From positions 512,001-576,000 of the forward strand of contig CAWAHW010000002.1 of assembly GCA_963781885.1 (NCBI GenBank): 64,000 nt of DNA, written 5' to 3'. The number at the start of each line of letters is the position of its first letter. The stretch's first letter is position 1. A model generated the notes under the pieces. It saw only the letters and a list, made by a program, of their open reading frames with translations, was not told the origin of the DNA and made no database searches. Below, in pieces: positions 8,554-32,182 of this stretch. The stretch is from an uncultured Spirochaetota bacterium (GTDB taxonomy: Bacteria; Spirochaetota; Spirochaetia; SZUA-6; Fen-1364). Both the position numbers and the translations under genes were made by a program.

Positions 8554-8697
8554 TGTAGACTCCTTTTTATCGATGATTGCTTTGAATAATTATCCAAGAA
8601 AAGTATAGATTACTAAAAATGTCAAGGATGTCGCCGGCCACCGAATCCGGCGGCATGGGGTCCGGTCAGCGTTCGACGAGCGGCGCGCAACGGGCAG

Positions 8698-8714
8698 GGA
8701 CATTTCTAAAGAGT
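8698..8714 (+). promoter_or_regulatory. 17-bp island motif, copy A: GGACATTTCTAAAGAGT
   Basis: One of six near-identical intergenic copies; 29 bp upstream of an extended -10 (TGC-TACACT, hexamer at 8744-8749) before the uxaE-like gene. Confidence 0.8.
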
Positions 8715-8759
8715 ATCCCCTCCCCACGGCCCGGCCTCCCTGCTACACTTCCCGGGGCC

Positions 8760-10460: not shown

Positions 10461-10470
10461 GAGGCAGGCC

Positions 10471-11148
10471 ATGCAGGTATTTCTGGACAGCGCAGACCCT
10501 CGGGAGATCGTGCAGGCGCGCACATGGGGCGCCATTGACGGAGTGACGACCAACCCGTCCCTGATTTCCCGCGCCGGCCCCGACATGCAGAAGACGCTGC
10601 GGGCCGTGCTGGATGCATCGCCGGGACCCGTGCTCTGCCAGGCCATCGGGTGGGACGATCCTGATTCACTTTCGGGTCAGGCGCGTTGGCTGCACGCCTT
10701 TTCCGACCGCATCATTGTGAAGCTCCCGATGAGCCCGGCCGGCATCATGGCGGTCCAGAAGCTGAAGCGGGAATCACCGGGCATGAAGATCGCCGTCACG
10801 CTCGTCTCATCCATCGCCCAGGCGTACCTCGTGGCAAAGGCGGGCGCGGATATCGTGGCGATATTCAATGGGCCGCTGGAGCAGGCGCTGGACCAGGACG
10901 TGGACCTTGTCGCGCCCGTGCGCACGATGTACGCGAACTACGGCTTCGCAACGAAGATACTTTCGTGCGGACGCTACCCCCGATCCTTCGGGGACTTCGC
11001 GGTGGCCGGGACGGACATCTGCACCATGCGCTTCGAGTTCCTCACGCTTCTCTACGAGCATCCTTTCACGGAGAAGCGCATGCGCGGCTTCATGGACGAC
11101 TGGCGGAAGGTTTTCGCCGATCGGACGTGGCCGGTCGCGGGCGCCTGA
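10471..11148 (+). CDS. Transaldolase / fructose-6-phosphate aldolase family protein
   Basis: MQVFLDSA, GVTTNPSLI, Schiff-base IVKLP, HPFT; RBS GGAGG. Confidence 0.85.
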   Translation: MQVFLDSADPREIVQARTWGAIDGVTTNPSLISRAGPDMQKTLRAVLDASPGPVLCQAIGWDDPDSLSGQARWLHAFSDRIIVKLPMSPAGIMAVQKLKRESPGMKIAVTLVSSIAQAYLVAKAGADIVAIFNGPLEQALDQDVDLVAPVRTMYANYGFATKILSCGRYPRSFGDFAVAGTDICTMRFEFLTLLYEHPFTEKRMRGFMDDWRKVFADRTWPVAGA

Positions 11149-11938: not shown

Positions 11939-12793
11939 TCATCCCTTGAGGCCGGTCGTCGCCATTCCCTGGATGATCCGTCTCTGGAATATGTAGTAGA
12001 AAATGACCTGGGGGATCAGGACGATGATGACCGCGCGCATGACGGCCGCCACGTCCATCCCGTACTGCTGCTTGAAGAAGGCCGCCGCGAGCGGGATCGT
12101 GAAATTCCTGATATTGCTCAGGATGACCGATGCCAGCGTCCACTCGTTCCAGGCCCAGATGAAATTGAAGATGATGAGCGTCGTTATCACCGGCGCGATC
12201 AGGGGGGCGACGATCCCGAAGATCAGCTTGGGGAGGCGGCATCCATCCATGATCGCGGCCTCTTCCAGCTCCAGGGGAACCGACTTGAGACCGCCGACGA
12301 AGACAAGCGTGTTGAAGGGCAGCGATCCCGCGATATAGGGAAGAGGGAGGCCGAAGATGCTGTCGATGCCAAGGCCGATTGGCTTCAGCTTGAGCGCGAG
12401 CAGGTAGATCGGGAAAAGGACAATGAAAAGGGGAACCGCATTGCCCATCAGGAAGAGGAAATAGAAGAAGTTGCCGAATGCGGCGTGCCGGTGGTGCAGA
12501 CGGGCGATGGCGAACGAGCTCAGGAAGTTGATCAGGATGCAGCCGATCGTCGTGAGGGAGGCCACGATCACGCTGTTCTTGAACAGCGTGGGCATATGGG
12601 ACTTCGAGAAGGTGTCGGCGTAGAGGGAGAGGTCCCATTTGTTCGGCAGGCTGAGCGGCGCGTTGTAGATTTCGGTGTTTCCCTTGAAGGAGAGGATGAA
12701 GCCCCAGACGAAGGGAAAGATCATGAAGGCGCAGATGATGAGGGAAACGAGGATCAGCAGCAGGCGCGTCGGGATTGTGGTGCCACTCGACAT
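11939..12793 (-). CDS. Carbohydrate ABC transporter permease
   Basis: EAA motif ELEEAAIMDGC, WAWNEW, FQRRIIQG. Confidence 0.9.
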   Translation of the reverse strand: MSSGTTIPTRLLLILVSLIICAFMIFPFVWGFILSFKGNTEIYNAPLSLPNKWDLSLYADTFSKSHMPTLFKNSVIVASLTTIGCILINFLSSFAIARLHHRHAAFGNFFYFLFLMGNAVPLFIVLFPIYLLALKLKPIGLGIDSIFGLPLPYIAGSLPFNTLVFVGGLKSVPLELEEAAIMDGCRLPKLIFGIVAPLIAPVITTLIIFNFIWAWNEWTLASVILSNIRNFTIPLAAAFFKQQYGMDVAAVMRAVIIVLIPQVIFYYIFQRRIIQGMATTGLKG

Positions 12794-12802
12794 GTTCTGC
12801 TC

Positions 12803-13756
12803 CTACGCCTCGACCCGCTTCGCGGTGATCCGCAGGAATCCAATGGAAAACACCATCATGACCAGGAACATGAGCAGCGCGACGGCCGATGCGTAGCCCG
12901 CCCTGCGCTCGGCGAGAAATATGTCGTACAGGAGGGTGCCGATATTGTGCGACTTGAAGTTCGGCTGGCCGTTGGTCAGGATATAGACGGTCTGCATGCT
13001 CTGGATGGCGTTGATGAAGACGTACACCGCGACGATCTTCAATGTCTCCTTGAGCATCGGCAGCGTGATGTAGCGGGTCTTCTGGGCCGAAGAGGCGCCG
13101 TCCATCTTCGCCGCCTCATAGAGCTCGGTCGGTATCAGCTTGAGACCGGCAAGAAAGAGCACCGAATAGAAGCCCAACGCTTTCCAGCTCTCGATGACGG
13201 CCACCGTGTAGGGTGTCAATGTCGGCCCGCCGATCCACTTGAAGGCAAGAAAGCCCATGTGATTGGCCTTGAGGAAGATGTTGAGCAGGCCGATCCCCGG
13301 ATCGACGACGAAGAACCATACGAGCGTGGTGATGATGGGCGATAGGATATAAGGCGTGAAAACCAGGAGCTTCACGACGCCGTTTCCCCGGAAATCCCTG
13401 TTGATGAAGAGCCCCAGCAGGAATGAAACGGGGAGGATGAGGGCAAGCTCGAGCACGGTGATGATGAGCGTATTCTTCAGCGCGATGGAGAGGTGGCCGT
13501 CGCTTGCCATCGATACGAAGTTGGCCACCCCGACAAACTTGCCGGGATAGAAGCTCGACTTGTCCGTGAATGCGATGGCCAGCGAGTAGACGATGGGATA
13601 CAGCACGTAGACGCAGAAAAATGCCAGGGAGGGAAGGAGCAGGAGGAGCTTTATCCACCGCTTGCAGTACATGAACACCGATGTCCTCCTCTGTTCTCCC
13701 GCGGCGGCCATTCGCGAGAGAGCCGAATCCTTGCGGATTCGGCTCTCGTTCATCAA
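12803..13756 (-). CDS. Carbohydrate ABC transporter permease
   Basis: ELYEAAKMDGAS, ITLPML, FVGVANF, GYASAVA. Confidence 0.9.
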   Translation of the reverse strand: MMNESRIRKDSALSRMAAAGEQRRTSVFMYCKRWIKLLLLLPSLAFFCVYVLYPIVYSLAIAFTDKSSFYPGKFVGVANFVSMASDGHLSIALKNTLIITVLELALILPVSFLLGLFINRDFRGNGVVKLLVFTPYILSPIITTLVWFFVVDPGIGLLNIFLKANHMGFLAFKWIGGPTLTPYTVAVIESWKALGFYSVLFLAGLKLIPTELYEAAKMDGASSAQKTRYITLPMLKETLKIVAVYVFINAIQSMQTVYILTNGQPNFKSHNIGTLLYDIFLAERRAGYASAVALLMFLVMMVFSIGFLRITAKRVEA

Positions 13757-13775
13757 ATCGAACCCCGATGCCGGA

Positions 13776-15119
13776 CTATTTCGGCAGCTTGGGGATTACC
13801 TCGTCGATGGCGGCATCCATCTTGGCGAGCTCGCCCGGGATGTCGGCCGCGGTCATGGAGCCGTTCATGAGGCTGTTCTCCAGGTTGCCGCGGATCGTTC
13901 CCCAGCCCTGGGTCCACAGGTCACCGTTGGAACTCCACTGCCAGTAGGGCGCGTAGTCGGAGTTCATAAGACCTGTATAGGACTTATCCTGGATCATCGC
14001 AACCTGCTGCTTCATGATCGGTCCGAGGCCCGACATGTCGATCTTCACGTTCACGGGCATGATCGTGCCGACCTTCAGTGCGAGCTGTGCTCCTTCCGAG
14101 CTGTAGCGCCACTTGTTGAAGGCGACGATGGCCTTGAGCTTGTCCGGATCACTGGCGGCAGTCGCGCCGATCCCGAATGCGTTCCCGACCGACCGGACGA
14201 TCCGCTTCTGGTTGTACTTCTTCGCCACCGGGTCGGTGAAGGCGAAGCCGAAGTTGAACACGTAGTTCTTCTCCAGCGGCTGGCCGATGATCTTGCCCAG
14301 CTGATCGGAGGGAAGGGTGATCATCGCCGCGTTGCCGGCGTTGAACATGGCGCACATCTGGTCGAAGCTCATGGTGGCGTTGTCCTCGGGGAAGGCCCCC
14401 AGGGCGCGCAGCTCCGCCTCGCGGTAGTATGCCTGGCCGAAATCGGCGTCGACGGCCTTCAATGTGTGGTCCTTGAACACCGCCTTGGCCTGTTCCCAGA
14501 TCCCGTACTGCATGAGCCACGCCTGGTAGCCCCAGACCGCCCATCCTTCCTTGGATCCGTACGCGATCGTCACGACGCCGTTCTTCTTGAACGTCGCGAC
14601 GCAGTTCTTGAGCTGATCGAATGTGGTCGGTATCTTCAGTCCGTACTTGTCAAAGAGGGCCTTGTTGTAGACCCATCCCTGGACCTGCATCTCGGTGGGG
14701 AATCCGGCGATCTTGCCGCCCGCGCTGGTGAGGTTGGTCAAGGCGCCTTCCACGAAGGTTGCCTTGAAGGCCGGGTCATAGAAGGGAGTGCAATCGACGA
14801 CCGACGTGGTCCTGTTGAGGAAGTCGACTAGGTGGGTTCCGTTGTCCCAGAACATGTCGGGCATGGAGTTGGACTGGGCCATGATCTCAAGCTTCTGCTG
14901 CAGGGTGTCGTGGTCCACGATCTGGTAATCGACGGAGATGTTGGGGTACTTCTTCATGTAGGTATCGAGTGTCACCCCGACCATGTCCGTTTCCCGGCCG
15001 ATGAAAGTCATGTAGCTGAAGTTTACCTTCTTTGTGGTTCCCTGTGCCTGCGCCCCGACTGTGGCGGAAAGCGTCACAAGGCACAGCAGGACCAAGAGAG
15101 CGGTGACGAGTTTTTTCAC
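13776..15119 (-). CDS. Carbohydrate ABC transporter substrate-binding protein
   Basis: Signal peptide, YNKALFDKYGLKIPTTFDQL; strong RBS AGGAGG before GTG. Confidence 0.88.
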   Translation of the reverse strand: MKKLVTALLVLLCLVTLSATVGAQAQGTTKKVNFSYMTFIGRETDMVGVTLDTYMKKYPNISVDYQIVDHDTLQQKLEIMAQSNSMPDMFWDNGTHLVDFLNRTTSVVDCTPFYDPAFKATFVEGALTNLTSAGGKIAGFPTEMQVQGWVYNKALFDKYGLKIPTTFDQLKNCVATFKKNGVVTIAYGSKEGWAVWGYQAWLMQYGIWEQAKAVFKDHTLKAVDADFGQAYYREAELRALGAFPEDNATMSFDQMCAMFNAGNAAMITLPSDQLGKIIGQPLEKNYVFNFGFAFTDPVAKKYNQKRIVRSVGNAFGIGATAASDPDKLKAIVAFNKWRYSSEGAQLALKVGTIMPVNVKIDMSGLGPIMKQQVAMIQDKSYTGLMNSDYAPYWQWSSNGDLWTQGWGTIRGNLENSLMNGSMTAADIPGELAKMDAAIDEVIPKLPK

Positions 15120-15300
15120 GGCAGACTACCTCCTTCTGATATTACGGTCGTCCAGGACGACCATTCGTGCAAAACACGGTGCTTCATTGCGCACATCATT
15201 CTTCCGTGCCGGCTCCCTCCTTTCCCCGGCACCTCCCCGCGGCCGGCCTGATCGTCGAACAGGCCGCCACAAGCCTCGTCGAGACGAGATGCCAGTGCAA

Positions 15301-15328
15301 ATCCTAAATCATCGCCCCCCATTGTCAA
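15301..15328 (-). promoter_or_regulatory. Predicted sigma70 promoter of the sugar ABC operon
   Basis: TTGACA (15328-15323), 16 bp spacer, TAGGAT (15306-15301). Confidence 0.6.
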
Positions 15329-15345
15329 CTGAGATTTCGCCAGAC

Positions 15346-15362
15346 ACTCGATAGAAATGTCC
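15346..15362 (-). promoter_or_regulatory. 17-bp island motif, copy B: GGACATTTCTATCGAGT
   Basis: 17 bp upstream of the TTGACA of the sugar ABC promoter. Confidence 0.8.
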
Positions 15363-15391
15363 CCTCGCGCTCCGCGCGCGCCGCGCGGGAA

Positions 15392-15408
15392 GGACATTTC
15401 AATCGAGT
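15392..15408 (+). promoter_or_regulatory. 17-bp island motif, copy C: GGACATTTCAATCGAGT
   Basis: Back-to-back with copy B; 38 bp upstream of a candidate -10 TAAGGT (15447-15452) before eda1. Confidence 0.8.
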
Positions 15409-15493
15409 CCGCGCGCCGATTCTTGATGACGGCGAGCCTCCGGCATTAAGGTGAGCCGAGCTTCCGCGTCACGACGCGATCGGGGGGAACATC

Positions 15494-16147
15494 ATGGGAA
15501 TGAAAAGGGACGTCCTGGACGCCCTGCACGAAAGCGGCGTCGTCGCCGTCATCCGCACGGAGAATCCACGCGACCTCGCGGCGGTGGCGCGTGCGCTGCA
15601 CGCCGGCGGGGTGCGCTGCGTCGAAATCACGATGACCGTGCCCGGCGCGCTGGACATCATCCGCGACGCCTGCGCCACGCTCTCCGGCATCGACGTGTTC
15701 ATCGGGGCGGGCACGGTGCTCGACGCGGTGAGCGCGCGGGCGGCCATCATCGCGGGGGCCCGGTTCGTCGTGGGTCCCGGCTTCGACCCGGAGATCGTGA
15801 AGACGTGCGCCCTGTACGGCGTCATGAATATGCCGGGCGCCTTCACACCGCAGGAGATCCTCTCCGCCTGGAAGGGCGGTGCGGACGTCGTGAAGGTGTT
15901 TCCGGCCGATCTTGGCGGTCCGGATTACATCAAGACGGTGCGCGAGCCGCTTCCCCAGATATCGCTCCTGCCGACAAAGGGCATCGACTTTTCCACCGCG
16001 GGGGCCTATATCAAGGCAGGTGCCTTTGCCGTCGGGGCGGGCGGCGCGCTGGTGAGCAAGGCGCTTATTGCCGCGGGGGACTACGATCGGATCACCGCCA
16101 ATGCGCGCGAGCTCGCCCGGATCGTGCGCGAGGCGAGGAAAGGGTAG
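15494..16147 (+). CDS. eda: KDPG/KHG aldolase (copy 1)
   Basis: VVAVIR, EITMTVPGA, IGAGTVLD, VKVFPA. Confidence 0.88.
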   Translation: MGMKRDVLDALHESGVVAVIRTENPRDLAAVARALHAGGVRCVEITMTVPGALDIIRDACATLSGIDVFIGAGTVLDAVSARAAIIAGARFVVGPGFDPEIVKTCALYGVMNMPGAFTPQEILSAWKGGADVVKVFPADLGGPDYIKTVREPLPQISLLPTKGIDFSTAGAYIKAGAFAVGAGGALVSKALIAAGDYDRITANARELARIVREARKG

Positions 16148-16151
16148 GCCG

Positions 16152-17195
16152 ATGAAGCAGGTTGCAACGGACCGCACGGTCGTGCTTTTCGGCGAGCTCA
16201 TGATGCGCCTGTCCACGAAGGGGCACGAGCGGCTCGTGCAGGCGCGCGAGTTCGACGTGATCTACAGCGGCGCGGAGGCGAATCTCGGCGTTGCCCTCAC
16301 CGGCTTCGGCGTGGAAAGCTTCATGGTGTCGAGCGTTCCCGACAACCCCGTCGGGCAGGCCTGCCTGAACTACATGCGACAGTTCGGTCTCAACCTGGAG
16401 CACGTCCGCCGCAATGGCCACCGCCTCGGCATCTACTTCGTGGAGACGGGGGCTGCGCAGAGGCCTTCCACCTTCCTTTACAACAGGGCCGGCAGCTCCA
16501 TCACGGAGTTGCGAAAAGGCGATATCGACTGGGCCCGCATCTTCCAGGGCAAGAGCTGGTTCCATTTCACGGGCATCACTCCCGCGCTTGCAAACAGCGT
16601 CGCCGACATCACCCGCGAGGCCTGCGCGGCGGCGGCAGCGGCGGGCGTGACGGTGAGCTGCGACCTGAACTTCCGCCGCAAGCTCTGGTCCCCGGAGAAG
16701 GCGCGCGCCGTGATAGAAGGGCTCATGGAATACGTTGACGTGCTCTTCACGAACGAGGAGGAGGCGGAGACGGTATTCGGCATTGCGGCACGGGGCAGCA
16801 ACGTGAAAGCGGGCACCATCTCGGCGCATGGATACGAGGACGTCGCGGTACAGCTCAAGGAGCGTTTTCATCTGGGCTATGTCTCCATCACGCTGCGGGA
16901 AAGCATCTCTGCGACGGCGAACAACTGGTCGGGCATGCTCTACGACGGCGCGCGGTTCTACACCAGCCGCACGTACCACATGGACCACATCGTGGATCGC
17001 ATCGGCGGCGGAGACGCCTACTCATCGGGCATCATCTACGGGCTCCTGACGGGTCAGGACCTCCAGGAGAGCGTGGAGTTCGCCGCGGCTGCATCGTGCC
17101 TGAAGCATACAATTCCCGGCGATTTCAACCTCGTCACCTTTGACGAAGTGCTCGCGCTCATGAAGGGCGATGCATCGGGCCGAATACAGCGCTGA
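16152..17195 (+). CDS. kdgK: 2-dehydro-3-deoxygluconokinase-like PfkB kinase (copy 1)
   Basis: FGELMMRLS, GAEAN, SCDLNFRRKLW, DRIGGGDA, LKHTIPGDFN, GDASGRIQR. Confidence 0.85.
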   Translation: MKQVATDRTVVLFGELMMRLSTKGHERLVQAREFDVIYSGAEANLGVALTGFGVESFMVSSVPDNPVGQACLNYMRQFGLNLEHVRRNGHRLGIYFVETGAAQRPSTFLYNRAGSSITELRKGDIDWARIFQGKSWFHFTGITPALANSVADITREACAAAAAAGVTVSCDLNFRRKLWSPEKARAVIEGLMEYVDVLFTNEEEAETVFGIAARGSNVKAGTISAHGYEDVAVQLKERFHLGYVSITLRESISATANNWSGMLYDGARFYTSRTYHMDHIVDRIGGGDAYSSGIIYGLLTGQDLQESVEFAAAASCLKHTIPGDFNLVTFDEVLALMKGDASGRIQR

Positions 17196-17284
17196 AATAA
17201 GTTTTCTGGCGCCAAAAGGCGACGTTTTGCCTATAATTAAAAGATATTTCGTGAAAAAACAGTGAGAATCTCTCGAAAATAATC

Positions 17285-17323
17285 TTGTTAACAATTGACA
17301 GATGACAGTTAATGATTTATCCT
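17285..17323 (+). promoter_or_regulatory. Predicted sigma70 promoter of the transposase-derived gene, with an abutting palindrome
   Basis: TTGTTAACAA palindrome (17285-17294), TTGACA (17295-17300), 17 bp spacer, TATCCT (17318-17323), within an AT-rich intergenic stretch. Confidence 0.65.
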
Positions 17324-17381
17324 GCTTCCTCGATTGAACAAGTTCCCTTTTTACACGGATGTCCGTGGGGAGGCAGTTGCC

Positions 17382-18542
17382 GTGAGTGAGAACGAGAACA
17401 TGCGTGCAATGATTCTCAACGGTGTGGTGAGCGGCGCCATGTCGCTCGACCAGGCAACGCAGATCCTCAATCTCTCCTATAGGCAGATGAAGAGGGTCTG
17501 GAAGCGTTTCCGCGAAGAAGGCGAGACGGGTCTGGCTCATCGTAACAAAGGTAGGCCTTCAAACAGGGCATTCGTCGATCAGCTCAAGCGCGACATTCTG
17601 CAGAAGTACGCCCGCGTGGGACAAGGCCTGGGGCCGACGCAATTCTCGGATCGCCTTGCGGCTGAAGGCATCTTTGTCGACCATGAGACGCTTCGGCGCT
17701 GGCTGCTGCAGAACGGCGCCTGGAAGCTTTCGCGGAACAGGGCGGTGCGGCCGGTGGAAGTGCGCACGAGCGGCTTCGGAGAGCTCCTCAATCTCGTGTC
17801 CTTCCACGGGTGCTGGCTCGGGGAGACCGTCGCACCCTGCTTCCTGGTCTGTCTGCGCGATGAGGCGACCGGCTACACACTCTGCTCCGCGAGCAGGGAC
17901 GAAACGAGTGAGACCGCCATGCGCCTCCTTCGGGCATGGATCGAGCGCCACGGCATTCCCGCGGGAATCCGCTGCCAGAGGCGTTTCCTCTTCGCGGAGA
18001 ACCGCCACCCGACGCTCGAGCAGCAGCTCTGCGGCGGCGGCGCCCTCACGGCGCTGAGCCGGTCCTTCGATCGGCTGGGCATCGAATCGGGAACGCTGTC
18101 CCCGTCACAGACGAAAGCCATCCTGAACGACATGCTGCCCTTCCTCGACGCCATGAAGGCGATGGTGGCGCGCAGCGGCGCGATCGGCATCGAGCAGACC
18201 ACGGCGTTCCTGCTGGGAGCGGCAGCGGACGAATTGAATGGGAGGTTCGCGGCAGGCCATGCGGAGGCGGACGACTACCACGTGCCGATTGTCGATGGCA
18301 CCGACCTGCGCAGGTTCCTCTGCGTCGACCAGGAGTGCCGCGTCAGCGCGCAGGGCATCGTCGAGCTCGGGCACCGGCGATTCCGCATCATGAACGGGGG
18401 GGCCATGGGCGTAAGGCATCTTCAGCGGGTCGTCGTTTCGGAGTGGCTCGACGGATCGGTGCACATCCTCTGCCAGGGGCGGGAGATCACCTTCCTCGAG
18501 ACCAGGCCGGCGCAACCTTGCATCGATCGTCTGGCAATGTAG
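17382..18542 (+). CDS. ISNCY/IS1202-type transposase homologue with intact HTH region and degenerate DDE triad; candidate domesticated DNA-binding regulator
   Basis: N-terminus LNLSYRQMKRVWKRFREEGETGLAHRNKGRPSNR and ETLRRWL; integrase-core landmarks GELLNL..DEATG, HGIPAG, PTLEQQL, LGIE...SPSQTK and EWLDGS. The expected catalytic D/D/E positions are substituted. GTG start with GGGAGG RBS; no terminal repeats seen. Confidence 0.8.
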   Translation: MSENENMRAMILNGVVSGAMSLDQATQILNLSYRQMKRVWKRFREEGETGLAHRNKGRPSNRAFVDQLKRDILQKYARVGQGLGPTQFSDRLAAEGIFVDHETLRRWLLQNGAWKLSRNRAVRPVEVRTSGFGELLNLVSFHGCWLGETVAPCFLVCLRDEATGYTLCSASRDETSETAMRLLRAWIERHGIPAGIRCQRRFLFAENRHPTLEQQLCGGGALTALSRSFDRLGIESGTLSPSQTKAILNDMLPFLDAMKAMVARSGAIGIEQTTAFLLGAAADELNGRFAAGHAEADDYHVPIVDGTDLRRFLCVDQECRVSAQGIVELGHRRFRIMNGGAMGVRHLQRVVVSEWLDGSVHILCQGREITFLETRPAQPCIDRLAM

Positions 18543-18566
18543 AAATACCAGTCCAAGGAGTCGAAA

Positions 18567-19223
18567 ATGGCGATTCGCTCACAGGAAGTCCTCGCGGCAC
18601 TCGAGGAAACAGGTGTCGTGGCGGTGATCCGGGTCGAAGACCCCGAGGGCCTCGCCGATGTCTCGCGCGCCCTGTGCGCGGGCGGCGTGCGCCTGGTGGA
18701 GATCACGATGACGGTCCCCGGTGCTCTCGCGCTGATCGCCTCGGTGAGCGCATCGCTCGGGAATGCCGTGTTTATCGGCGCCGGCACCGTCCTGGACGCG
18801 GCTGCCGCGCGCATGGCGATACTCGCCGGCGCGCGTTTCGTCGTCGGGCCCAGCTTTGACCCTGACGTCGTGGCCATGTGCAAGCTCTACGACACGCCCG
18901 TCATGCCGGGCTGCCTCACGCCGACGGAGATCGCCGCGGCGTGGAAGGCGGGCGCCGACGTCGTGAAGATCTTCCCCGGCCGGGTGGGCACCCCCGAGTA
19001 TTTCCAGGACCTCAAGGGCCCCTTCCCCCAGGTGAGGATGATGCCCACGGGCAATGTCGACGTCGTGACGACGCCCGCGTACATCAAGGCGGGCGCGGTT
19101 GCCGTCGGCGTCGGAAAAGCGCTCGTCGACCCGCGCGCCATGGCGGCGCGCCAGTACAAGGTCATCACCGACAATGCCATCGCGTTCCGACGGCTCGTGC
19201 AGGACGCGCGGAGCCGCACCTGA
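18567..19223 (+). CDS. eda: KDPG/KHG aldolase (copy 2)
   Basis: VVAVIR, EITMTVPGA, IGAGTVLD, VKIFPG, MPTGNV. Confidence 0.88.
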   Translation: MAIRSQEVLAALEETGVVAVIRVEDPEGLADVSRALCAGGVRLVEITMTVPGALALIASVSASLGNAVFIGAGTVLDAAAARMAILAGARFVVGPSFDPDVVAMCKLYDTPVMPGCLTPTEIAAAWKAGADVVKIFPGRVGTPEYFQDLKGPFPQVRMMPTGNVDVVTTPAYIKAGAVAVGVGKALVDPRAMAARQYKVITDNAIAFRRLVQDARSRT

Positions 19224-20251
19224 TGGCAAAAAAGGTCGTCCTCTTCGGGGAGCTCCTCATGCGGCTGGCGCCGAAAGGCGTCGACAGGTTCGTGCAGGCG
19301 GAGGAGTTCGACGTCCGCTACACCGGCGCCGAGGCGAACGCCGGTGTGTCGCTCGTCAATTTCGGCATGGAAGCCTATGCCGTATCAAAGGTGCCGGACA
19401 CCGAGATCGGCCAGGCCTGCATCAACTACCTGAGCCGGTTCCGGGTCAACACGGACCACGTGGCGCGCGGCGGGGAGCGGCTGGGCATCTTCTTCCTGGA
19501 GACCGGCGCGGCCCAGCGCGCCTCGAAGATCATCTACGACCGCGGGCACAGCGCCATCCGCGATTCAACACCGTCCGACTACGATTGGGAGCGCATCTGC
19601 GAAGGCAAGGACTGGTTTCATTTCTCCGGCACCGCGCCGGCGCTCGGCGAGGGGGTGCAGAGGGTGCTGGAGGACGGCCTGGTCGTCGCCCGGCGGCGGG
19701 GGCTCACGGTCAGCTGCGATCTGAACTACCGGGCAAAGCTATGGTCGCCGGCCGAGGCCCAGCGCGTGATGACCGGGTTCATGCGCCACGTCGACGTGCT
19801 CATCGGCAACGAGGAGGACGCGGAGAAGGTATTCGGCATCGCGGCGCCCGGCAGCGACGTGGGCAAGGGAAAGATCGTCGGCGACTCCTATCGCCACGTC
19901 GCCGTGGAGCTCGTGCGGCGTTTCGGGTTCCAGAAGGTGGCCACGACCCTGCGGGAGAGCGTTTCCGCGTCCGTGAACGGGTGGGCGGCCATGCTGTCCG
20001 ACGGCACGACGCATGTCACGAGCCGCCGCTACGAGATCGCCCCAATCGTGGATCGGGTGGGCGCCGGCGACTCCTTCACCGGCGGTCTCATCTTTGCGCT
20101 CCTGTCGGGCTACGACCTGCAACGCAGCGTCGATTTCGCCGCGGCAGCATCCTGCCTGAAACATTCGATCGCCGGGGACTTCAATCTCGCTTCCGTCCGG
20201 GAGGTGGAGGCGCTGATCGCCGGTGAAGCGTCGGGAAGGGTGCAGAGATGA
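19223..20251 (+). CDS. kdgK: 2-dehydro-3-deoxygluconokinase-like PfkB kinase (copy 2)
   Basis: ATG overlaps the eda2 stop (TGATG); FGELLMRL, DRVGAGDSF, LKHSIAGDFN. Confidence 0.85.
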   Translation: MAKKVVLFGELLMRLAPKGVDRFVQAEEFDVRYTGAEANAGVSLVNFGMEAYAVSKVPDTEIGQACINYLSRFRVNTDHVARGGERLGIFFLETGAAQRASKIIYDRGHSAIRDSTPSDYDWERICEGKDWFHFSGTAPALGEGVQRVLEDGLVVARRRGLTVSCDLNYRAKLWSPAEAQRVMTGFMRHVDVLIGNEEDAEKVFGIAAPGSDVGKGKIVGDSYRHVAVELVRRFGFQKVATTLRESVSASVNGWAAMLSDGTTHVTSRRYEIAPIVDRVGAGDSFTGGLIFALLSGYDLQRSVDFAAAASCLKHSIAGDFNLASVREVEALIAGEASGRVQR

Positions 20252-20327: not shown

Positions 20328-21155
20328 ATGGGCTCGATGGAAGGCATGCGTGTCCTCGTGACAGGGGCGGGCACGGGGATCGGGAAGGGAATCGCGGAAG
20401 AGTTTGCGCACGAAGGGGCAACCGTGGTGCTCCATTATTCGCACAGCTCGGCCGGGGCAATCGCCGCGGCGCACGCCATCGTTGCCGCCGGCGGAAAGGC
20501 GGAGGCGATGCCCGCGGACTTTTCCCGACGCGACGAGGTGCGGGGGCTTGCCGCGCGCGCGCTTTCATTCCTGGGGGGAATCGACGTCCTGGTCAACAAC
20601 GCCGGGGTGTCCCTCACATTGCCCTTCGAGCAGGTCACCGGCGAGCAGTTCGACCTGCTCTATGCCGTGAATGTCAGCGCGCCCTTTTTCCTCACGCAGG
20701 CGCTCCTTCCGCGTCTCTGCGAGTCGAAGAACGCGTCGGTCATCAACCTGAGCTCCATCCACGCCTACGAGGGCGCCCCCGAGTACGCCGTCTACGCGGG
20801 CACGCGCGGTGCCATCCTGGCTTTCACGCGGGAGCTCGCCATCGAGCTCGCACCGCTCGGCATACGGGTGAACGGCATCGCCCCGGGATCGACCAACGTG
20901 GAAAGCCATCGGAAGGTCGCGTCGAGCGCCGAGCTCGAAGCGGAGGGCCGGGGGATACCCGTCGGCAGGCTTGGAACGCCGCAGGACATGGGCAAGGTCG
21001 CCGTATTCCTCGCGTCGGAGGGAGCGCGCTTCATCGTCGGACAGACCATCGTGGTCGACGGCGGCACCATCTCGTGGATGCCGTTCGGGGAGCAGTTCCG
21101 ACGCCGTGCGCCGAAAGAGTACCGCCTGGGCCAGGGCTACGTGCCGGGGATGTAG
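20328..21155 (+). CDS. SDR-family oxidoreductase
   Basis: TGAGTGIG, NNAG, YAGTR (YxxxK lysine replaced by Arg), VDGG. Confidence 0.85.
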   Translation: MGSMEGMRVLVTGAGTGIGKGIAEEFAHEGATVVLHYSHSSAGAIAAAHAIVAAGGKAEAMPADFSRRDEVRGLAARALSFLGGIDVLVNNAGVSLTLPFEQVTGEQFDLLYAVNVSAPFFLTQALLPRLCESKNASVINLSSIHAYEGAPEYAVYAGTRGAILAFTRELAIELAPLGIRVNGIAPGSTNVESHRKVASSAELEAEGRGIPVGRLGTPQDMGKVAVFLASEGARFIVGQTIVVDGGTISWMPFGEQFRRRAPKEYRLGQGYVPGM

Positions 21156-21198: not shown

Positions 21199-22101
21199 CT
21201 ACAACAGCTCGTTCGCCGTGAGCGCCCGCTTGATCTCGGTCGCCTGCTCGGGGCCCATGGGCTCCAGCGGCGCGAGCGCCTTGCCCGCGCCGATGCCCAT
21301 GAGCGAGGCGGCGTGCTTGAAGCCCGTTACCCAGCTCGCCGGCCCGCCGACAAGCGGCGCGCGCACGGGCTGCAACTTGGCGAATAGCCGCGTCACGGCC
21401 TCCCAATCCGCCCGTGTGGCCGCATCGAAAAGCCGCACGAACAGCGCAGGGGCGATGTTGGCCGTCCCCGGCACGATGCCCGCGGCGCCTGCCTTCAGCT
21501 CTTCCACCAGCGTGACCTCGTCACCGGCAAGCACGGAAAGTCCCACATCCTTGCCGCGTTTCACGAGATCGCGGAAATAGGCGACGTCGCCCGAGCTTTC
21601 CTTGCAGTACCGTATCCATCCGCGCCGCGCCATGTCGCAGACCATTCCCACGTCCAGCGCGACACCCGTGCTCTGGGGGATGTTGTAGGCGATCATCTCC
21701 ATGTCGCCGGCCGCCTCGCGCGCCGCGGCGTAAAGACGAAGCTGCTCGGAGGCGCTCCTGGCTGCAATGTAGAAGCTTGGTGTCAGGACGAAGCCGCGGC
21801 ACCCGACCTGGCGCAGCACGCGCACCTTCTCGATGACGCGGGAGGCCGACGTCTCCATGACGCCCGTCACGAGGCTCGTTTTCGATCCGCACTCGTCGTA
21901 TGCGATCTCCGCCAAGCGCTGCCATTCCGCGAACGTGAGGAGGGGTCCTTCACCCGCGGTGCCCCCGGCGAAAATCCCGCGCACACCCGCGGCGATGAGC
22001 CGGCGTATCAGGGACCGCAGCCCCTGCTCGTCCACCCGCTCCTGCGCATTGGTGGGTGTGATGATGGGAACGACGACGCCATGCAGAGACTGTTTGTCCA
22101 C
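21199..22101 (-). CDS. Dihydrodipicolinate synthase-family aldolase/dehydratase
   Basis: GTAGEG, YNIPQSTG, KESSGD. Confidence 0.85.
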   Translation of the reverse strand: MDKQSLHGVVVPIITPTNAQERVDEQGLRSLIRRLIAAGVRGIFAGGTAGEGPLLTFAEWQRLAEIAYDECGSKTSLVTGVMETSASRVIEKVRVLRQVGCRGFVLTPSFYIAARSASEQLRLYAAAREAAGDMEMIAYNIPQSTGVALDVGMVCDMARRGWIRYCKESSGDVAYFRDLVKRGKDVGLSVLAGDEVTLVEELKAGAAGIVPGTANIAPALFVRLFDAATRADWEAVTRLFAKLQPVRAPLVGGPASWVTGFKHAASLMGIGAGKALAPLEPMGPEQATEIKRALTANELL

Positions 22102-22146: not shown

Positions 22147-23292
22147 TCATGACGAAAGCGGGTATCGCCCCGCGTTCCTCACCTCGTCGCACATGGCAAC
22201 GATATTCTGAGGCGGCACATCGGGCTGGATGCAGTGCACGGCCGCGGCGACATAGCCGCCCCCCGGGGCAAGATCGCCGATGCGGCGCCGGACCTCGGCG
22301 CGCACGTCAGCTTCGCTGCCGTGGGGAAGGACGGTCTGGGTATCGATGGCGCCGCAGAAGGAGAGCCGGCCGCCGAACTCCCGTTTCAGACGGGCGGTGT
22401 CGGCGAGGTCCTTTGCCGAGACCTGCACGGGGTTCAGCAGGTCGACACCGACATCGGCCAGGTCCCCGATGAGCGGATAGATGTTGCCGCAGGAATGGAA
22501 GAAGACCTTCGCGCGGGTACCCTCGTGAATCGCCGCGAGCGTCTCCGCCTGGTGGGGCTTGACGAGCCGTCGGTATAGCGCGGGCGCCATGAATGTCGAG
22601 TCCTGCGTGCCCAGGTCATCGCCCGTGAGTGCGATGTCGACAAAGTCTCCCACCTGACGGAAGAGCTCGCGGAGATACGGGATCATGCGGATCTTGAACT
22701 CGTGCATGAGCGCAAGGAAGAAGTCCTCGTCCGCCGCCAGATCCATCAGGCACTCGGAAAGGCCCCGCATGAGGTATGCCTGCTCGAAGAGAGTGACGCC
22801 CGTCATGAGGATGCAGGCTTTGCCGGACTGCTGGATCGCCCGGCAGCGCGCGGCCAGGCCTTCGAAACGGGACGGCGCCGACAGATCGGGCCAGGGGTAA
22901 CGGGGCAGATCCTCAATGCGCGCGTTGCGCAGCGGAGGCTCGATCACCTCGAAGTAGCCGGTGCCCGGGTTGCGCGTCCAGGTGCAGCCCCAGTCGTCGA
23001 CCAGCTCGTCCGGCGAGACGTCGCGGCGAAGCGTGGATGCCGCGGGACCGGGCACGCAGGGGCGGCCGTCCGAGCCCAGGCGCTCCATCACCGCCTCGTC
23101 CATCCACGTGTACTGGAATTGCCGCGATATCCAGCGCAGGGGACCCGGCTCGATGCCAAGGTGCCTCGCAAGACGCGGGTAGCCGGGCCCCAGGACCGTG
23201 GTGGCACCCGACGTTCCGATGAAGAGAGGGACCCGGTCCGGCTCCTCGTGATTCAGCGCCATCGCCACGCGTTCGCGCGACGTCATGCCCAT
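22147..23292 (-). CDS. Uroporphyrinogen decarboxylase-fold (MtaA/CmuA-like) protein
   Basis: MTSRERV..HEEPDRVP, DDWGC, GDDLGTQ, FFHSCGN, LNPVQVSA, PGGGY, HCIQPDVP; start at ATG 23292 with RBS. Confidence 0.85.
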   Translation of the reverse strand: MGMTSRERVAMALNHEEPDRVPLFIGTSGATTVLGPGYPRLARHLGIEPGPLRWISRQFQYTWMDEAVMERLGSDGRPCVPGPAASTLRRDVSPDELVDDWGCTWTRNPGTGYFEVIEPPLRNARIEDLPRYPWPDLSAPSRFEGLAARCRAIQQSGKACILMTGVTLFEQAYLMRGLSECLMDLAADEDFFLALMHEFKIRMIPYLRELFRQVGDFVDIALTGDDLGTQDSTFMAPALYRRLVKPHQAETLAAIHEGTRAKVFFHSCGNIYPLIGDLADVGVDLLNPVQVSAKDLADTARLKREFGGRLSFCGAIDTQTVLPHGSEADVRAEVRRRIGDLAPGGGYVAAAVHCIQPDVPPQNIVAMCDEVRNAGRYPLSS

Positions 23293-23317
23293 TTGTGTCT
23301 CCTCTCCCCGCGCCGGC

Positions 23318-24445
23318 CTAGTAGGTCCCCATGGCAAGGCCCTTGTCCACGAAGTGCCGGTAGGTGGGGTAATCGACAAGGCTCGACACGCTGTGGTCCA
23401 CCTGCAGGATGTACCCGCTGCCGGCCATTGCTCCGGGAAGCTTGCGTGAAAGCTCCGCATCGACCACGGAAAGGTCATTCGTCTCCAGGGTCCGCGCATC
23501 CATGCCGCCGATCAGCGCGATCCTGTCCCCCACGTCCTTCTTGATCTTCAGCAGATCCATGCCGGCCTTCGTCTCGATCGGCTGGAGGCAGTCGATGCCC
23601 GCCTCCAGGAGGGACGGCAGCAGCGCTTCAACGAAGCCGTCGCAGTGGAGGATCACGGGAAGCCCCCGGCTGTGCGCGAAGTCGAAGAGTCTCTTGTGCG
23701 CGGGAAAAACGATCTGGCGATACATCGCGGGAGACATGAAGGGCTTGTTCTTGAACCCCAGGTCATCCCACACCCAGAGGCCATCGGGCAGGCCTTCTTT
23801 CGCGAAGAGTTGCTCAAGCAACCGGATCGTGACCGTGGCAAAGAGGTCGGCCATCTCGGTTACCCATGGCTCGTCGAGCGCCATCCCCATGAGCAGGTAC
23901 TCGTGCCCGCACATGGGTGACATGAGGTCGAAGGCGCCGACGACCCCGCAGGAGAGAAAGAGCTCCTGCCGGGCGCATTTCTCCCTCATCTGCCGGTAGC
24001 GGTCGGAGCGGATGCGGCGGGAATCCAGGCTGAGATTCGTGAGGTGCGGCTTGATGTGCTCCTCCCACCCCGCCCGGTCGCGCACCGTGAAGTCAACGTG
24101 CTCGGGAGCGCCCGACCCGTTCTTCAGCCAGCGCAGGAAGGCGCCGTTTCCGTCGCGGATCAGCTTTGCCGTGTCCGTTTCCTCCACGACGGCTTGCCCG
24201 GCGTCAAGGTCGGCCACCAGCTCCAGCACATTGCCCGGCATGGGAGTGATTTCCCCGCTTGTGCGACGGACGTCCAGGCCGAAATGATCGCTCACGTCCT
24301 CAGGCGCCTTGTACCAGCCCTGAGCGCACCACGTGTCGGCCGTCTCCCGCCAGAAGACTTCGAAGAGACCCACCCTGTCCACGGGCTGATGCTTCAGGAT
24401 CCTCGAGATGCGCTCCCTGCTCGTGAGGGGGGAAGCCTTTTTCAT
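23318..24445 (-). CDS. Uroporphyrinogen decarboxylase-fold protein
   Basis: TSRERI, WDDLGFK, LHCDG, LQPIETKAGMD, GYILQVDHSV. Confidence 0.85.
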   Translation of the reverse strand: MKKASPLTSRERISRILKHQPVDRVGLFEVFWRETADTWCAQGWYKAPEDVSDHFGLDVRRTSGEITPMPGNVLELVADLDAGQAVVEETDTAKLIRDGNGAFLRWLKNGSGAPEHVDFTVRDRAGWEEHIKPHLTNLSLDSRRIRSDRYRQMREKCARQELFLSCGVVGAFDLMSPMCGHEYLLMGMALDEPWVTEMADLFATVTIRLLEQLFAKEGLPDGLWVWDDLGFKNKPFMSPAMYRQIVFPAHKRLFDFAHSRGLPVILHCDGFVEALLPSLLEAGIDCLQPIETKAGMDLLKIKKDVGDRIALIGGMDARTLETNDLSVVDAELSRKLPGAMAGSGYILQVDHSVSSLVDYPTYRHFVDKGLAMGTY

Positions 24446-25533
24446 GGTGTTCGATCTCCTCTTTTTCGTGTCAGGGACGGCGATGCCCCCATCATGCGCG
24501 CGGCGAGGTGCTCGATGGGTGTTCGCGGTCCCCGGAAAAATCGCACGGTGCTCACGTCGTCGTACCGGTTTCTGCCGGTGTCCCCGCCGATGGCGGGCGC
24601 GTGATACTCCAGCTCGCTGAAGCTGCCCAGGGCCGCATTGTTCACGGCGCATGCCTGCACGGCGCAGGCGGGCGGACCGGATCGCGGCGTGTCGATGTAG
24701 AGGAGACCCGGGTCCACCGCGAAATCCCGCACGATGAGATCGGCGCGCCCGCCGTTCCCGTGCAGGTAGCCCACGCGACCCGTGACCGATTCAGGGGGCA
24801 GCCCGATCTTCTTGTCTCCCTGTCCCCGCATCGCCCACTGGACGAGCGCCTGCTGCCGCCCCACGTCCTCCGCGGGGATGAGACCGAAAAAAAGGACCGG
24901 TTCGGGGCGATCTTTCACGCCGAAGAGCATCACCCCGCCGTGGGGAAGCTGCAGGAGGTTCCAGAGCCCCACGGGGGTGCGCGGCGCGAGCTGCGTGACC
25001 TCGAGGGTGCAGCGCAGGGTGTAGCCGCAGGACAGGATCCCCTGCACCGGCAGATCGTTGCGCACGGCATCCGGGTCCATCGCTTCGACGCTTTTTGAAA
25101 GCGACAGCCCGACATCCTCGGCTGTGCGAAACGAGTGGAGGGAGAAGGAGGTGGACATGACCAGGCGTGTCGCCTCCCGGCGGCAGGTGAAGCTGCCGGG
25201 ATCGAATACGCGGGGCTGGAAGTAGCCTTCCTCCCTTGGGTAGCGCGGGAGGAAGAAATCCGCTTCGGGTGCAATCCAAGTGCGGTCACCGCCGGTATTG
25301 CACCATGCGCCTGATTCGAAGAGACGGCGCGCGCTGTCCGTCCGGTCCAGCGCGGAATTGTTCCAGAGGAAGCCCTCCTCCTCGGTTCCGGGAAAGACGC
25401 CCAGCACGCGCGCCCCATGGGGGAGCACGACGACGCGTGCGCCGTCCGGTGCACGGAGGATCTCGGCGGGCTTGCCTGCCTCGGCCAGCCGCGCGGCCAG
25501 GGCGGCGGTAGCCCCGTCAGACTTTGACGCCAT
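24442..25533 (-). CDS. Conserved hypothetical protein (DUF6786-like)
   Basis: Coupled to both neighbours; NTGGDRTWIAPE and FSELEYHAP motifs; family call is tentative. Confidence 0.55.
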   Translation of the reverse strand: MASKSDGATAALAARLAEAGKPAEILRAPDGARVVVLPHGARVLGVFPGTEEEGFLWNNSALDRTDSARRLFESGAWCNTGGDRTWIAPEADFFLPRYPREEGYFQPRVFDPGSFTCRREATRLVMSTSFSLHSFRTAEDVGLSLSKSVEAMDPDAVRNDLPVQGILSCGYTLRCTLEVTQLAPRTPVGLWNLLQLPHGGVMLFGVKDRPEPVLFFGLIPAEDVGRQQALVQWAMRGQGDKKIGLPPESVTGRVGYLHGNGGRADLIVRDFAVDPGLLYIDTPRSGPPACAVQACAVNNAALGSFSELEYHAPAIGGDTGRNRYDDVSTVRFFRGPRTPIEHLAARMMGASPSLTRKRGDRTP

Positions 25534-26485
25534 TCACGACGTTCGGCGGCTTGCCCCCGCGCAGCATGACGGCCACGGTCTCCGCGACGTCCGTGCGGAG
25601 CTTCAGACCCGAGGTCGGGCTGCCGGAGGCGCAGTGCGGGTTGATGAGCACGTTGTCGAGCTTCGCGAGCGGATGACCCGTCGGGATGGGCTCGGGATCC
25701 GTGACGTCCAGGGCGGCCCCCGCAAGGTGACCGCTCTGCAGCGCGGCGACAAGGTCGTCCGTCTTCACGAGTGTCCCGCGGGAGACATTGACCAGGAGCG
25801 AGCCGCGCTTCATCTTCGCGATGGACTGCGCGTTTATCATCTGCCGCGTCTCCGGCGTGCTCGGGCAATGGAGCGACACGAGGTCGCTCTGCGCGAAGAG
25901 CTCCTCCCGCGTCACGGGGATGAAGCCGTCCTTCTTGATGCGCCGCGCCTCCACGTGGGGGTCGGCCACGATGACGCGGCACTTGAACGGCGCCAGGCGG
26001 AGAGCCACCTCGCGGCCGATGCGGCCGTAGGCAACGATGCCGACGGTCATGTCCTTCAACGCGCGCATGTCCTTGATGTCCACCGCGAGACTCCAGCTTC
26101 CCGCGCGGATGCGCATCGCGTTCTGGCTGATGCGCCGCGTCATCTCCAGGATCATCGCCAGGGCGTGATCGGCAACCTCGTTCGTGCAATAGTCCGGCAC
26201 GTTGCAGACGGGTATCTTCTTCGCCGCGGCCGCGGCGAGATCGACATTGTCCACCCCGATGCCGTAGCGCACGATGACGCGGCACTTCTGCATCGCAGCG
26301 ATCACCTCCGCGGTGACGGGAGCGAACTGCGTGATCACGTAGTCGGCGTCTTTCACCAGCGCAACGAGGCCCGGCTTTTCCTTGCCGGTCTTCAGCGAGG
26401 TGAACTGGCAGCCCAGCGGCTCCAGTATTCCCTTTTCGATGTCCAGGACGTCAAAACCATAATCCGTCACGGCGACGATCGGCAT
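25517..26485 (-). CDS. D-isomer-specific 2-hydroxyacid dehydrogenase (CtBP-like)
   Basis: RYGIGVDNVD, NVPDYC, YGRIG, NVSRG, LDVTDPEP, NPH. Confidence 0.9.
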   Translation of the reverse strand: MPIVAVTDYGFDVLDIEKGILEPLGCQFTSLKTGKEKPGLVALVKDADYVITQFAPVTAEVIAAMQKCRVIVRYGIGVDNVDLAAAAAKKIPVCNVPDYCTNEVADHALAMILEMTRRISQNAMRIRAGSWSLAVDIKDMRALKDMTVGIVAYGRIGREVALRLAPFKCRVIVADPHVEARRIKKDGFIPVTREELFAQSDLVSLHCPSTPETRQMINAQSIAKMKRGSLLVNVSRGTLVKTDDLVAALQSGHLAGAALDVTDPEPIPTGHPLAKLDNVLINPHCASGSPTSGLKLRTDVAETVAVMLRGGKPPNVVNGVKV

Positions 26486-26495
26486 GTTTCTTCTC

Positions 26496-27281: not shown

Positions 27282-27323
27282 GCTGCCTCCGTCGTCATGA
27301 CACCGGCTGAGATATTCCCCGGT

Positions 27324-27351: not shown

Positions 27352-27367
27352 CGGACGGCCCGCCCGC

Positions 27368-30266: not shown

Positions 30267-30267
30267 C

Positions 30268-32109: not shown

Positions 32110-32182
32110 GGTGTACCTCCGCGTATTGTATGCTCGGTGACGGAACAATGCTAAGGTAGCCAAAGCGATTTGCCCACGCAAG

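Follow-up and report, generated by a model that had tools for sequence, protein, structure and literature searches.

A 64,000-nucleotide window of contig CAWAHW010000002.1 (positions 512,001 to 576,000 of the forward strand; GenBank assembly GCA_963781885.1) from an uncultured Spirochaetota bacterium carries a gene for which the label TnpL was coined in this analysis (17382-18542, + strand; positions count from the first letter of the window). TnpL encodes a homologue of the transposases of the IS1202 family (ISTde1 type) of insertion sequences (IS), in which the catalytic DDE residues are missing. Our sequence comparisons suggest, with a probability of about three in four, that TnpL is a domesticated transposase of the ISTde1 subgroup which acts as a transcription factor on operators resembling IS ends. 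The ancestor of TnpL would have lost its catalytic centre as well as its IS ends, and the host would have kept a DNA-binding transcription factor. In favour of this reading are the conservation of the DDE-less protein as one clade, the purifying selection on TnpL, and the placement of a 17-nt motif of the IS-end type before a conserved set of sugar-acid genes in genomes that carry TnpL.

A transposase homologue without catalytic residues or IS ends

The open reading frame (ORF) of TnpL runs from a GTG codon at 17382 to a TAG codon at 18542 and comprises 386 codons free of stops and frameshifts, as had been stated in an earlier reading made from the sequence alone (the sequence-only reading). 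An alternative TTG start at 17334 would result in a protein of 402 amino acids (aa); every homologue starts at the M/V-SENE position, which corresponds to the GTG. The NCBIfam model NF033594 (ISNCY_2, IS1202 group) matches TnpL end-to-end (residues 11-371 against positions 2-364 of 368, E 7.8e-46), but with a score of 156.9 bits the family cut-off of 250 is not reached, and TnpL has to be regarded as a homologue below threshold. In a Pfam scan, domains of the types HTH_28/29/32 (helix-turn-helix, HTH) were found at the N-terminus and no rve domain was detected in the protein.

To read the catalytic columns, relatives were collected by a search of 5.8 billion clustered proteins, which gave 167 matches among 8000 candidates scored; the counts of aligned relatives refer to the best 120 of these 167. 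The MAFFT alignment comprised 119 proteins of at least 330 aa, query included, and omitted P0002 (identical to the query) and P0073 (shorter than 330 aa). The three DDE columns are occupied in TnpL by V139 (LLNL-V139-SFHG), Q199 (GIRC-Q199-RRFL), and N249 (TKAIL-N249-DML), so that first and second D as well as the E are all replaced, as the sequence-only reading had claimed. At the E+7 position TnpL has a D, where the IS1202/ISTde1 family has Q. D160, which belongs to the extra conserved aspartates of the family, is retained in TnpL and invariant.

Most of the aligned proteins (77 of 119) carry D, D, and E in the contexts ..LVQ[M/L/F]DGSHH, ALY.D.K, and AKGR[V/I]ER, whereas both aspartates are missing from 42, namely the query, P0003-P0042, and P0062. 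These 42 are exactly the nearest proteins to the query, with identities of 37-86%. Their third column holds E in three cases and D in one, with the surrounding motif gone; these four aside, uncharged or basic residues occupy the metal-binding positions throughout the clade. A maximum-likelihood tree was calculated with IQ-TREE from 41 DDE-less and 39 DDE rows (every second of the 77; P0038, which has a scrambled segment, was also omitted). The DDE-less rows make up one side of a single long branch with an SH-aLRT support of 100, so that catalysis was lost once and the lineage diversified afterwards. Such a shared and ancient catalytic loss is not the behaviour of a pseudogene.

The N-terminal part of the protein has changed least. 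Identity to the active transposases is 46% for residues 1-60 and 43% for residues 61-112, compared to 33% in the core and 22% at the C-terminus; the HTH part is therefore the one with the closest resemblance to active transposases, in agreement with the earlier remark that it stays close to consensus. The DDE-less clade has also gained invariant residues that are absent from the active group (F88, G131, V301, I303, D305, T307, R310, W355, E368, and A385), and its signatures are HVPIVDGTDLR at 300-310, W355, E368, and a C-terminal LA[IM]. An AlphaFold2 model built on an 84-sequence alignment (pLDDT 85.2, pTM 0.63) predicts two HTH domains (1-111), an RNase H-like core with the order beta-beta-beta-alpha-beta-alpha-beta-alpha (136-265), a helical part (266-310), and a C-terminal beta domain (314-374). 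The top PDB matches of this model in Foldseek are the IS21 transposase IstA (E 1.4e-12), TnsB, MuA, and retroviral integrases including the RSV integrase. According to the model, TnpL keeps the transposase fold.

Comparison with the orthologue in genome G005 (86% identity) gave a ratio of nonsynonymous to synonymous substitution rates (dN/dS) of 0.107 (NG86) or 0.073 (maximum likelihood) at a dS of 0.68-0.92; neighbouring metabolic genes, compared with G005 in the same way, range from 0.024 to 0.131. Resolved by domain, dN/dS is lowest in the HTH region (0.055), followed by the linker (0.057), the dead core (0.124), the helical part (0.144), and the C-terminus (0.159). All domains of TnpL are under purifying selection.

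None of the features of a mobile element was found around the gene. TnpL is present in one copy in the 4.64-Mb host genome (92.55% complete and searched in all but 16,000 bases), and no other member of the IS1202/ISTde1 family was found in this genome. No terminal inverted repeat brackets TnpL; the search gave only short pairs of 74-92% complementarity, and the best pair with arms on both sides (16 nt, 88% complementary) has its right arm within the downstream gene eda2. Candidate IS ends around TnpL were rejected on this ground, and no copy of the IS-end motif described below occurs between 15408 and 20516. The single copy at a fixed chromosomal position shows neither a target duplication nor other signs of mobility. 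An IS1202/ISTde1 homologue by sequence, TnpL does not qualify as such an IS by its DDE triad, ends, target duplication, copy number, or score.

Further members of the clade occupy the same place in related genomes. Full-length DDE-less genes were identified in G005 (86% identity), G018 (54-55%), and G019 (51%), together with an N-terminal piece at a contig end in G017, and no others were found among 92 genomes of the order. The order kdgK1 / TnpL / eda2-kdgK2 / SDR is shared with G005, G018, and G019, and kdgK1 / TnpL is seen at the contig end of G017; the G018 locus has TnpL and kdgK2 but no eda2. In the same G018 locus (L026, G018:C3, ~10344-10995) the eda1 homologue is split into separate matches to residues 1-77 and to residues 95-217, a sign of a frameshift or a gap. 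The kdgK2 type, defined by more than 70% identity, was seen only in TnpL-carrying genomes, while the best match in five TnpL-less members of the genus reaches 45-48%. TnpL and its downstream operon are thus inherited jointly. The opposite pattern is found in G008 of the same genus, where a DDE-intact copy of the family at a contig end (L029, G008:C19 5100-5905) is shifted in frame near residue 90 and stops prematurely, and is a case of ordinary IS decay. A search of metagenome contigs was uninformative on the context of the DDE-less genes, since the best 80 loci all fall into the DDE-intact range of 30-37% identity and lie mostly on short contigs. The proposal of the sequence-only reading, a selective loss of catalysis with retained DNA binding rather than decay, is supported by the alignment to the IS1202 family, the predicted fold, the single syntenic clade, the single copy lacking inverted repeats, and a dN/dS far from neutral.

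Motifs of the IS-end type near TnpL

Relatives of TnpL with ~30-37% identity were found by an alignment search in genome contigs, where they are multicopy in Hydrogenedentota, Thermoanaerobaculia, and deltaproteobacterial metagenome-assembled genomes (MAGs). ISTde1-type IS are highly multicopy within single MAGs (L034-L038, L044-L050, L065-L074, and others). The boundaries of six IS families were set by comparing copies. These elements measure 1430-1602 bp, have TGT as their first letters (TGTC in five families and TGTA in the sixth), and close with ...TTGACA (in one case ...TTGACAG as called), an outward-facing hexamer of the -35 type. Target duplications of 16-17 bp were present in 23 of 25 copies. 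The mapped elements match the ISTde1 subgroup of the IS1202 family, which has been characterized by TGT ends, duplications of 15-17 bp, the combination of HTH and DDE, and a Q at E+7 (bioRxiv 10.1101/2022.12.17.520857).

Each end of these IS contains up to two inward-facing copies of a motif of ~17 nt (e.g. AACTCATTAGAAATGTCCCC), located 7 and 31-34 nt from the tip. When up to three mismatches were allowed, 17 hits were obtained in the 70-bp IS ends, 1-4 per IS, whereas the remainder of the loci of these six families gave no hit. The motif is presumably the place where the transposase binds. Among five spirochaete IS elements, whose IS copies are on different strands, three (G154, G344, and G076) have motif sites at 46-79 nt beyond the gene segment that was matched.

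The same motif, ACTC[GT][AT]T[AT]GAA[AT]TGTCC (searched as ACTCKWTWGAAWTGTCC; core GAAATGTCC), has seven sites in the TnpL host genome with at most one mismatch, compared to none for the reversed control. Six of the seven are located within a 24.7-kb span (C2:520698-545348) that includes TnpL. The seventh, an exact copy, is found outside the window on another contig (G000:C4:97296-97312, - strand). All six window sites are intergenic and lie before sugar-acid catabolic and transport operons. ACTCGATAGAAATGTCC (15346-15362, +) and ACTCGATTGAAATGTCC (15392-15408, -) are the left and right halves of a convergent pair between the SBP/ABC transporter operon (-) and eda1 (+), with the right half 86 nt before the eda1 ATG; ACTCGATAGAAATGTCC agrees at every position with one IS-end copy of the motif, from a Thermoanaerobaculia element. 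ACTCTTTAGAAATGTCC (8698-8714, -) lies between a LivK-type binding-protein gene (7408-8553, -) and a UxaE-like gene, whose ORF runs from 8619 and whose likely start is near 8822. ACTCTATAGAAATGTCC (27368-27384, +) is found 87 nt upstream of an FAA-hydrolase/2-hydroxyacid-dehydrogenase (FAH-2HADH) operon (25517-27281, -) and 179 nt upstream of a DUF386/YhcH gene (27563-28012, +). The remaining two are ACTCTTTAGAATTGTCC (32183-32199, -), flanked by genes for an SDR (31291-32181, -) and for a URO-D-like protein (32228-33301, +), and ACTCTTTTGAAATGTCC (33332-33348, -), upstream of an Ldh_2-family dehydrogenase gene (33365-34495, +).

Beyond the 17 nt the flanks of the six sites are unrelated, so that the sites are not copies of one repeat element, and an interpretation as copies of a miniature inverted-repeat transposable element was rejected for this lack of flank likeness. 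At three of the six sites a TGTCAA hexamer begins 22-26 nt upstream of the motif, with 17-20 nt in between. The TGTCAAC at 15323 was considered as an IS tip and rejected, as its 23-nt offset from the motif fits neither IS position and it coincides with the -35 of a minus-strand promoter-like site. This promoter-like site (15328..15301, - strand) precedes the SBP gene, and the motif begins 18 nt upstream of its -35; at a second promoter-like site (32154..32125) the motif lies 29 nt upstream. Both positions look activator-like, but promoter scans beside the motif sites at 27200-27600 and 8500-8900 gave no promoter-like sites.

Within the genus (21 genomes), the number of motif sites goes with the presence of TnpL. 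The five genomes with TnpL have 7, 8, 9, 5, and 3 sites, and the 16 genomes lacking it have none in 14 cases and one site each in G001 and G015, with one hit in total for the control pattern. When the 92 genomes of the order were included, at least three sites were seen in two further genomes only, G028 and G033. Six of the seven G028 hits are found at 36-55 nt from contig ends, where an unassembled multicopy IS would place them. G033 contains an N-terminal fragment of the family, 96 residues long and with a stop, and one hit is 43 nt away from it. Signs of IS copies are present in both genomes.

In the TnpL-carrying genomes the sites are found on the contig of TnpL and before the same genes. 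The eda1/SBP placement is shared by the host (G000), G005, and G018, with a pair also in the latter two, and a site lies before an eda homologue in the Treponemataceae genome G492. The FAH-2HADH placement, as a single site or a pair, is seen in G000, G005, G017, and G018 (before the FAH gene), and a pair in G492 adjoins the start of the 2HADH homologue. The SDR/Ldh_2 placement occurs in G000, G005, G018, and G019, where the site of G005 is positioned between the Ldh_2 and URO-D-like homologues, and the UxaE-like placement occurs in G000, G005, and G019, the latter two of which also have the pairing of LivK-type and UxaE-like genes. In all eight pairs the sites converge (+ then -), an orientation that IS ends also have towards each other, with spacers of 3-134 nt.

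The association recurs in a second lineage. G492 (locus L033) encodes a member of the DDE-less clade with 40% identity to TnpL, whose neighbours are a different ABC transporter, an enolase-superfamily gene, a kdgK2-like gene, and an AOR-like gene. Seven of the 11 motif hits in this genome (at most two mismatches; control 0) are located within ~30 kb of the homologue, and the sites adjoin homologues of eda, kdgK, SDR, and 2HADH. On the level of comparative genomics, a putative operator motif lies upstream of a conserved gene set and co-occurs with TnpL. These motifs of the IS-end type before neighbouring genes, and their co-occurrence with TnpL, go beyond the claims of the sequence-only reading.

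The TnpL promoter and its gene neighbourhood

A promoter scan of 15100-18700 gave three promoter-like sites, compared to 0.5 expected. The one of TnpL (17285-17323, +) consists of a conserved block TTGTTAACA(A/G)TTGACA (17285-17300) that ends in the -35 hexamer TTGACA (17295-17300), a 17-nt spacer, and the -10 hexamer TATCCT (17318-17323), and scores 10/12. A GGAGG 8 nt 5' of the GTG provides the ribosome-binding site. Between the TnpL stop and the eda2 ATG there are 24 bp (18543-18566) that include AAGGAG. The promoter, the ribosome-binding site, and the short gap, which leaves no room for a right inverted repeat, had all been described by the sequence-only reading, and each was recovered here. 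Due to this gap, eda2, kdgK2, and SDR are probably co-transcribed with TnpL.

An 8-bp palindrome, TGTTAACA, abuts the -35 of TnpL. The promoter block is unique in the window and is kept in all five syntenic loci, while the remaining spacer has diverged, and a tandem variant of the TGTTAACA block is located upstream of the 40%-identical homologue (L033 7876-7907, Treponemataceae). The conserved block TTGTTAACAATTGACA was also considered as a former IS left end. It lies 97 nt before the start codon, and the left ends of active IS are 87-115 nt away from the start codons of their own genes, but the block is unlike IS tips save for TGTCAA on the other strand, and descent is not claimed. Two other near-matches of the TTGTTAACAATTGACA block in the genome, one before an unrelated gene and one inside an ORF, were treated as chance.

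TnpL is embedded in genes of sugar-acid metabolism. Upstream lie eda1 (KDPG/KHG aldolase, 15494-16147, +) and, directly before TnpL, kdgK1 (PfkB kinase, 16152-17195, +); downstream follow eda2 (18567-19223, +), kdgK2 (19223-20251, +), and SDR (20328-21155, +). The eda-kdgK pairs on both sides of TnpL are old paralogues with ~55-60% identity between them. Divergent from eda1, a sugar ABC transporter operon (11939..15119, -) encodes an SBP_bac_1 protein (13776-15119) and two permeases and is a putative member of the regulon. Three URO-D-family paralogues (22147-24652, -, and 32228-33301, +) and a DHDPS-family gene (21199-22101) stand among the sugar-acid genes, and homologues accompany the locus in G017 and G019. 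The genes for a 2-oxoacid dehydrogenase E1 (29433-31567, -) look broken, as model positions 2-154 and 153-299 of E1_dh are matched by overlapping ORFs in different frames (30503-31567 and 30268-30810) and the match of the E1-beta-like ORF (29433-30266) to the Transketolase_C model stops at position 61 of 124; the cause is either a frameshift or an assembly error. A Pfam scan of 38 window genes (0.5-40 kb) revealed no other transcription-factor domain. Four DNA sequencing runs contain the locus, with shares of 0.05-0.12, and no RNA run was listed.

A former transposase as regulator: proposal, alternatives and known systems

Since both N-terminal HTH domains are retained, we infer that TnpL still recognises the 17-nt motif. 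TnpL itself would bind the 17-nt sites, and this binding would regulate transcription. The operators would be single sites or convergent pairs before the transport and catabolic operons for sugar acids (KDG/uronate-type) around TnpL. With its own promoter and its place 24 bp ahead of eda2-kdgK2, TnpL is probably expressed jointly with a part of its putative regulon. The former catalytic core and the C-terminal domain have acquired residues that are invariant in the clade and may have a role in dimerisation or effector sensing. The sequence-only reading had speculated on oligomerisation or ligand sensing by the dead core, and the observations that bear on this idea are the purifying selection on the core and the clade-specific residues. 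More tentatively, and as a possibility that we would not yet favour, a DDE transposase of the ISTde1 group could have lost catalysis and become the dedicated transcription factor of a sugar-acid regulon whose operators descend from IS ends, and the former metal pocket, now rich in Q and R (conserved RCQRRF segment), could sense an anionic sugar-acid effector. On this tentative view, as IS ends carry an outward-facing TTGACA beside the motif, a solo end before a gene would create a transposase-controlled promoter in one step.

Several observations do not fit easily with this proposal or limit its support. The TnpL promoter contains the conserved TGTTAACA, which differs from the 17-nt IS-end motif, and the latter is absent there; the different element points to a second DNA specificity or to another regulator at this promoter. 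A promoter-like partner is present in only two of the five site-bearing intergenic regions, and with a start of the UxaE-like gene at 8619 the site at 8698 would fall inside the ORF. Genes were called by a crude GC3 rule, and the start codon is uncertain in several cases. G015 has an exact motif copy and G001 a copy with one mismatch, and neither genome has a member of the family. Genomic context was read in five DDE-less members besides the window, the other ~36 being metagenomic. The compared genomes are related and incomplete MAGs (69-97% complete), and the co-occurrence counts are therefore not independent.

The absent DDE triad and IS ends, together with the score below the NCBIfam cut-off, would also be expected of an IS copy that is decaying, or was inactivated recently, and in which no stops have accumulated so far. 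The low dN/dS at a dS of 0.68-0.92, the conserved synteny, and the 42 full-length DDE-less relatives, which reach down to 37% identity and form one clade, make such a pseudogene scarcely credible, and the truly decaying copy in G008 has an intact DDE together with a frameshift and a stop. Very improbable as well is a recombinase that is still active through other residues or with a partner nuclease. It would account for the complete transposase fold retained in the model and for the invariant D160, but not for a single copy that has neither ends nor target duplications and whose position is fixed across species, nor for metal-binding positions that are uncharged or basic across the clade except for the few third-column E (3/42) and D (1/42).

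A different case would be a domesticated DNA binder that does not regulate host genes, either as a dead competitor at the ends of incoming ISTde1-type IS, that is a transposition inhibitor or immunity factor, or as an architectural or recombination accessory protein; the nearby motifs would then be relics. Truncated or inactive forms of transposases are known to inhibit transposition in other IS elements, the motif is an IS-end motif, and copies or remnants of the family exist in the genus and order (the decayed DDE-intact copy in G008 and the signs in G028 and G033). However, the host genome has no active family member, and TnpL is embedded in and co-inherited with a catabolic operon. The sites are moreover kept before orthologous operons although the TnpL proteins are only 40-55% identical and the spacers have diverged, and relics would not persist in this way. 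We therefore consider a non-regulatory binder unlikely. The 17-nt sites could also be operators of another regulator, in which case the resemblance to IS ends and the joint presence with TnpL would result only from the co-inheritance of one accessory island. TnpL, kdgK2, and the sites all belong to one patchily distributed region, so that co-occurrence alone cannot separate them; the scan for DNA-binding domains covered only a part of the small ORFs of the window, and the TnpL promoter has no motif. On the other hand, a 17-nt match, in one case exact, to a sequence at a fixed offset in the IS ends of TnpL's own family is very unlikely to arise by chance, with 0-1 hits per genome for the reversed control. 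The association is repeated in a second lineage with a different gene order, and none of the 38 scanned genes encodes another transcription-factor domain. Control by a different regulator thus appears distinctly unlikely, and TnpL acting on IS-end-like operators is the reading that we prefer.

The domestication of DDE transposases as transcription factors is a textbook theme in eukaryotes. In bacteria, transposases and their N-terminal fragments (OrfA/InsA) repress at IS ends that overlap the transposase promoter. Such autoregulation is a pre-existing activity on which domestication would have built; TnpL differs in being outside any IS and in having its sites before host catabolic genes. With the IS1202/ISTde1 elements TnpL shares end-to-end homology, the layout of HTH-HTH, RNase H, and C-terminal beta fold, and a DNA motif that is subterminal in the IS and lies near TnpL in the host. 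In contrast to these elements, TnpL lacks the D, D, and E, the Q at E+7, terminal repeats, a target duplication, and an rve domain, and is a single copy at a fixed position with a score below the cut-off.

The eukaryotic factors FHY3/FAR1 (Mutator-like) and ZBED (hAT) resemble the proposed role of TnpL in that a DDE-type transposase was kept for sequence-specific DNA binding and regulates host genes (PMC13306707, PMC3606216). TnpL, by contrast, is bacterial, keeps the whole dead catalytic fold, resides inside the operon cluster that it would control, and has putative operators that still match the ends of living relatives. As prokaryotic domestications, the literature searched gave TnpA-REP (PMC8266576) and the RNA-guided TldR (PMC10705468, PMC13622181). 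The TldR proteins are nuclease-dead bacterial repressors derived from TnpB and, like TnpL in our proposal, represent a transposon-encoded nuclease that lost catalysis and turned into a transcription factor. TldR is RNA-guided and stems from the RuvC-type accessory nuclease TnpB, whereas the DDE transposase itself is the source of TnpL, in which HTH domains would read the DNA. The likeness to TnpA-REP (RAYT) is looser and consists in a single-copy, domesticated transposase tied to short genomic repeats that resemble transposon ends. RAYT is an active HUH enzyme (IS200/IS605-type) with high-copy REP elements, but the DDE protein TnpL is catalytically dead, and its promoter-proximal sites are few. 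No bacterial regulator derived from a DDE transposase was found in the literature searched, in so far as its accessible parts go, and the full list of IS1202 members (Supplementary Table 1, bioRxiv 10.1101/2022.12.17.520857) might include DDE-less entries; the available part of bioRxiv 10.64898/2026.08.24.746577 contains nothing on the domestication of prokaryotic transposases.

The locus unites living IS relatives with mapped ends, a dead but conserved descendant, and a few end-like sites before a coherent catabolic set in several genomes. If the more tentative reading, with operators that descend from IS ends, is true, it would be a bacterial counterpart of the transposon-wired regulatory networks of eukaryotes, with parts that are still recognisable. 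The locus opens the questions of how a selfish DNA-binding enzyme becomes a host regulator, whether regulons can be seeded by IS ends, and what use is made of a dead RNase H fold. For annotation, the 42 members of the clade, which are named 'transposase' or remain unnamed, would inflate the counts of mobile elements and hide a regulator.

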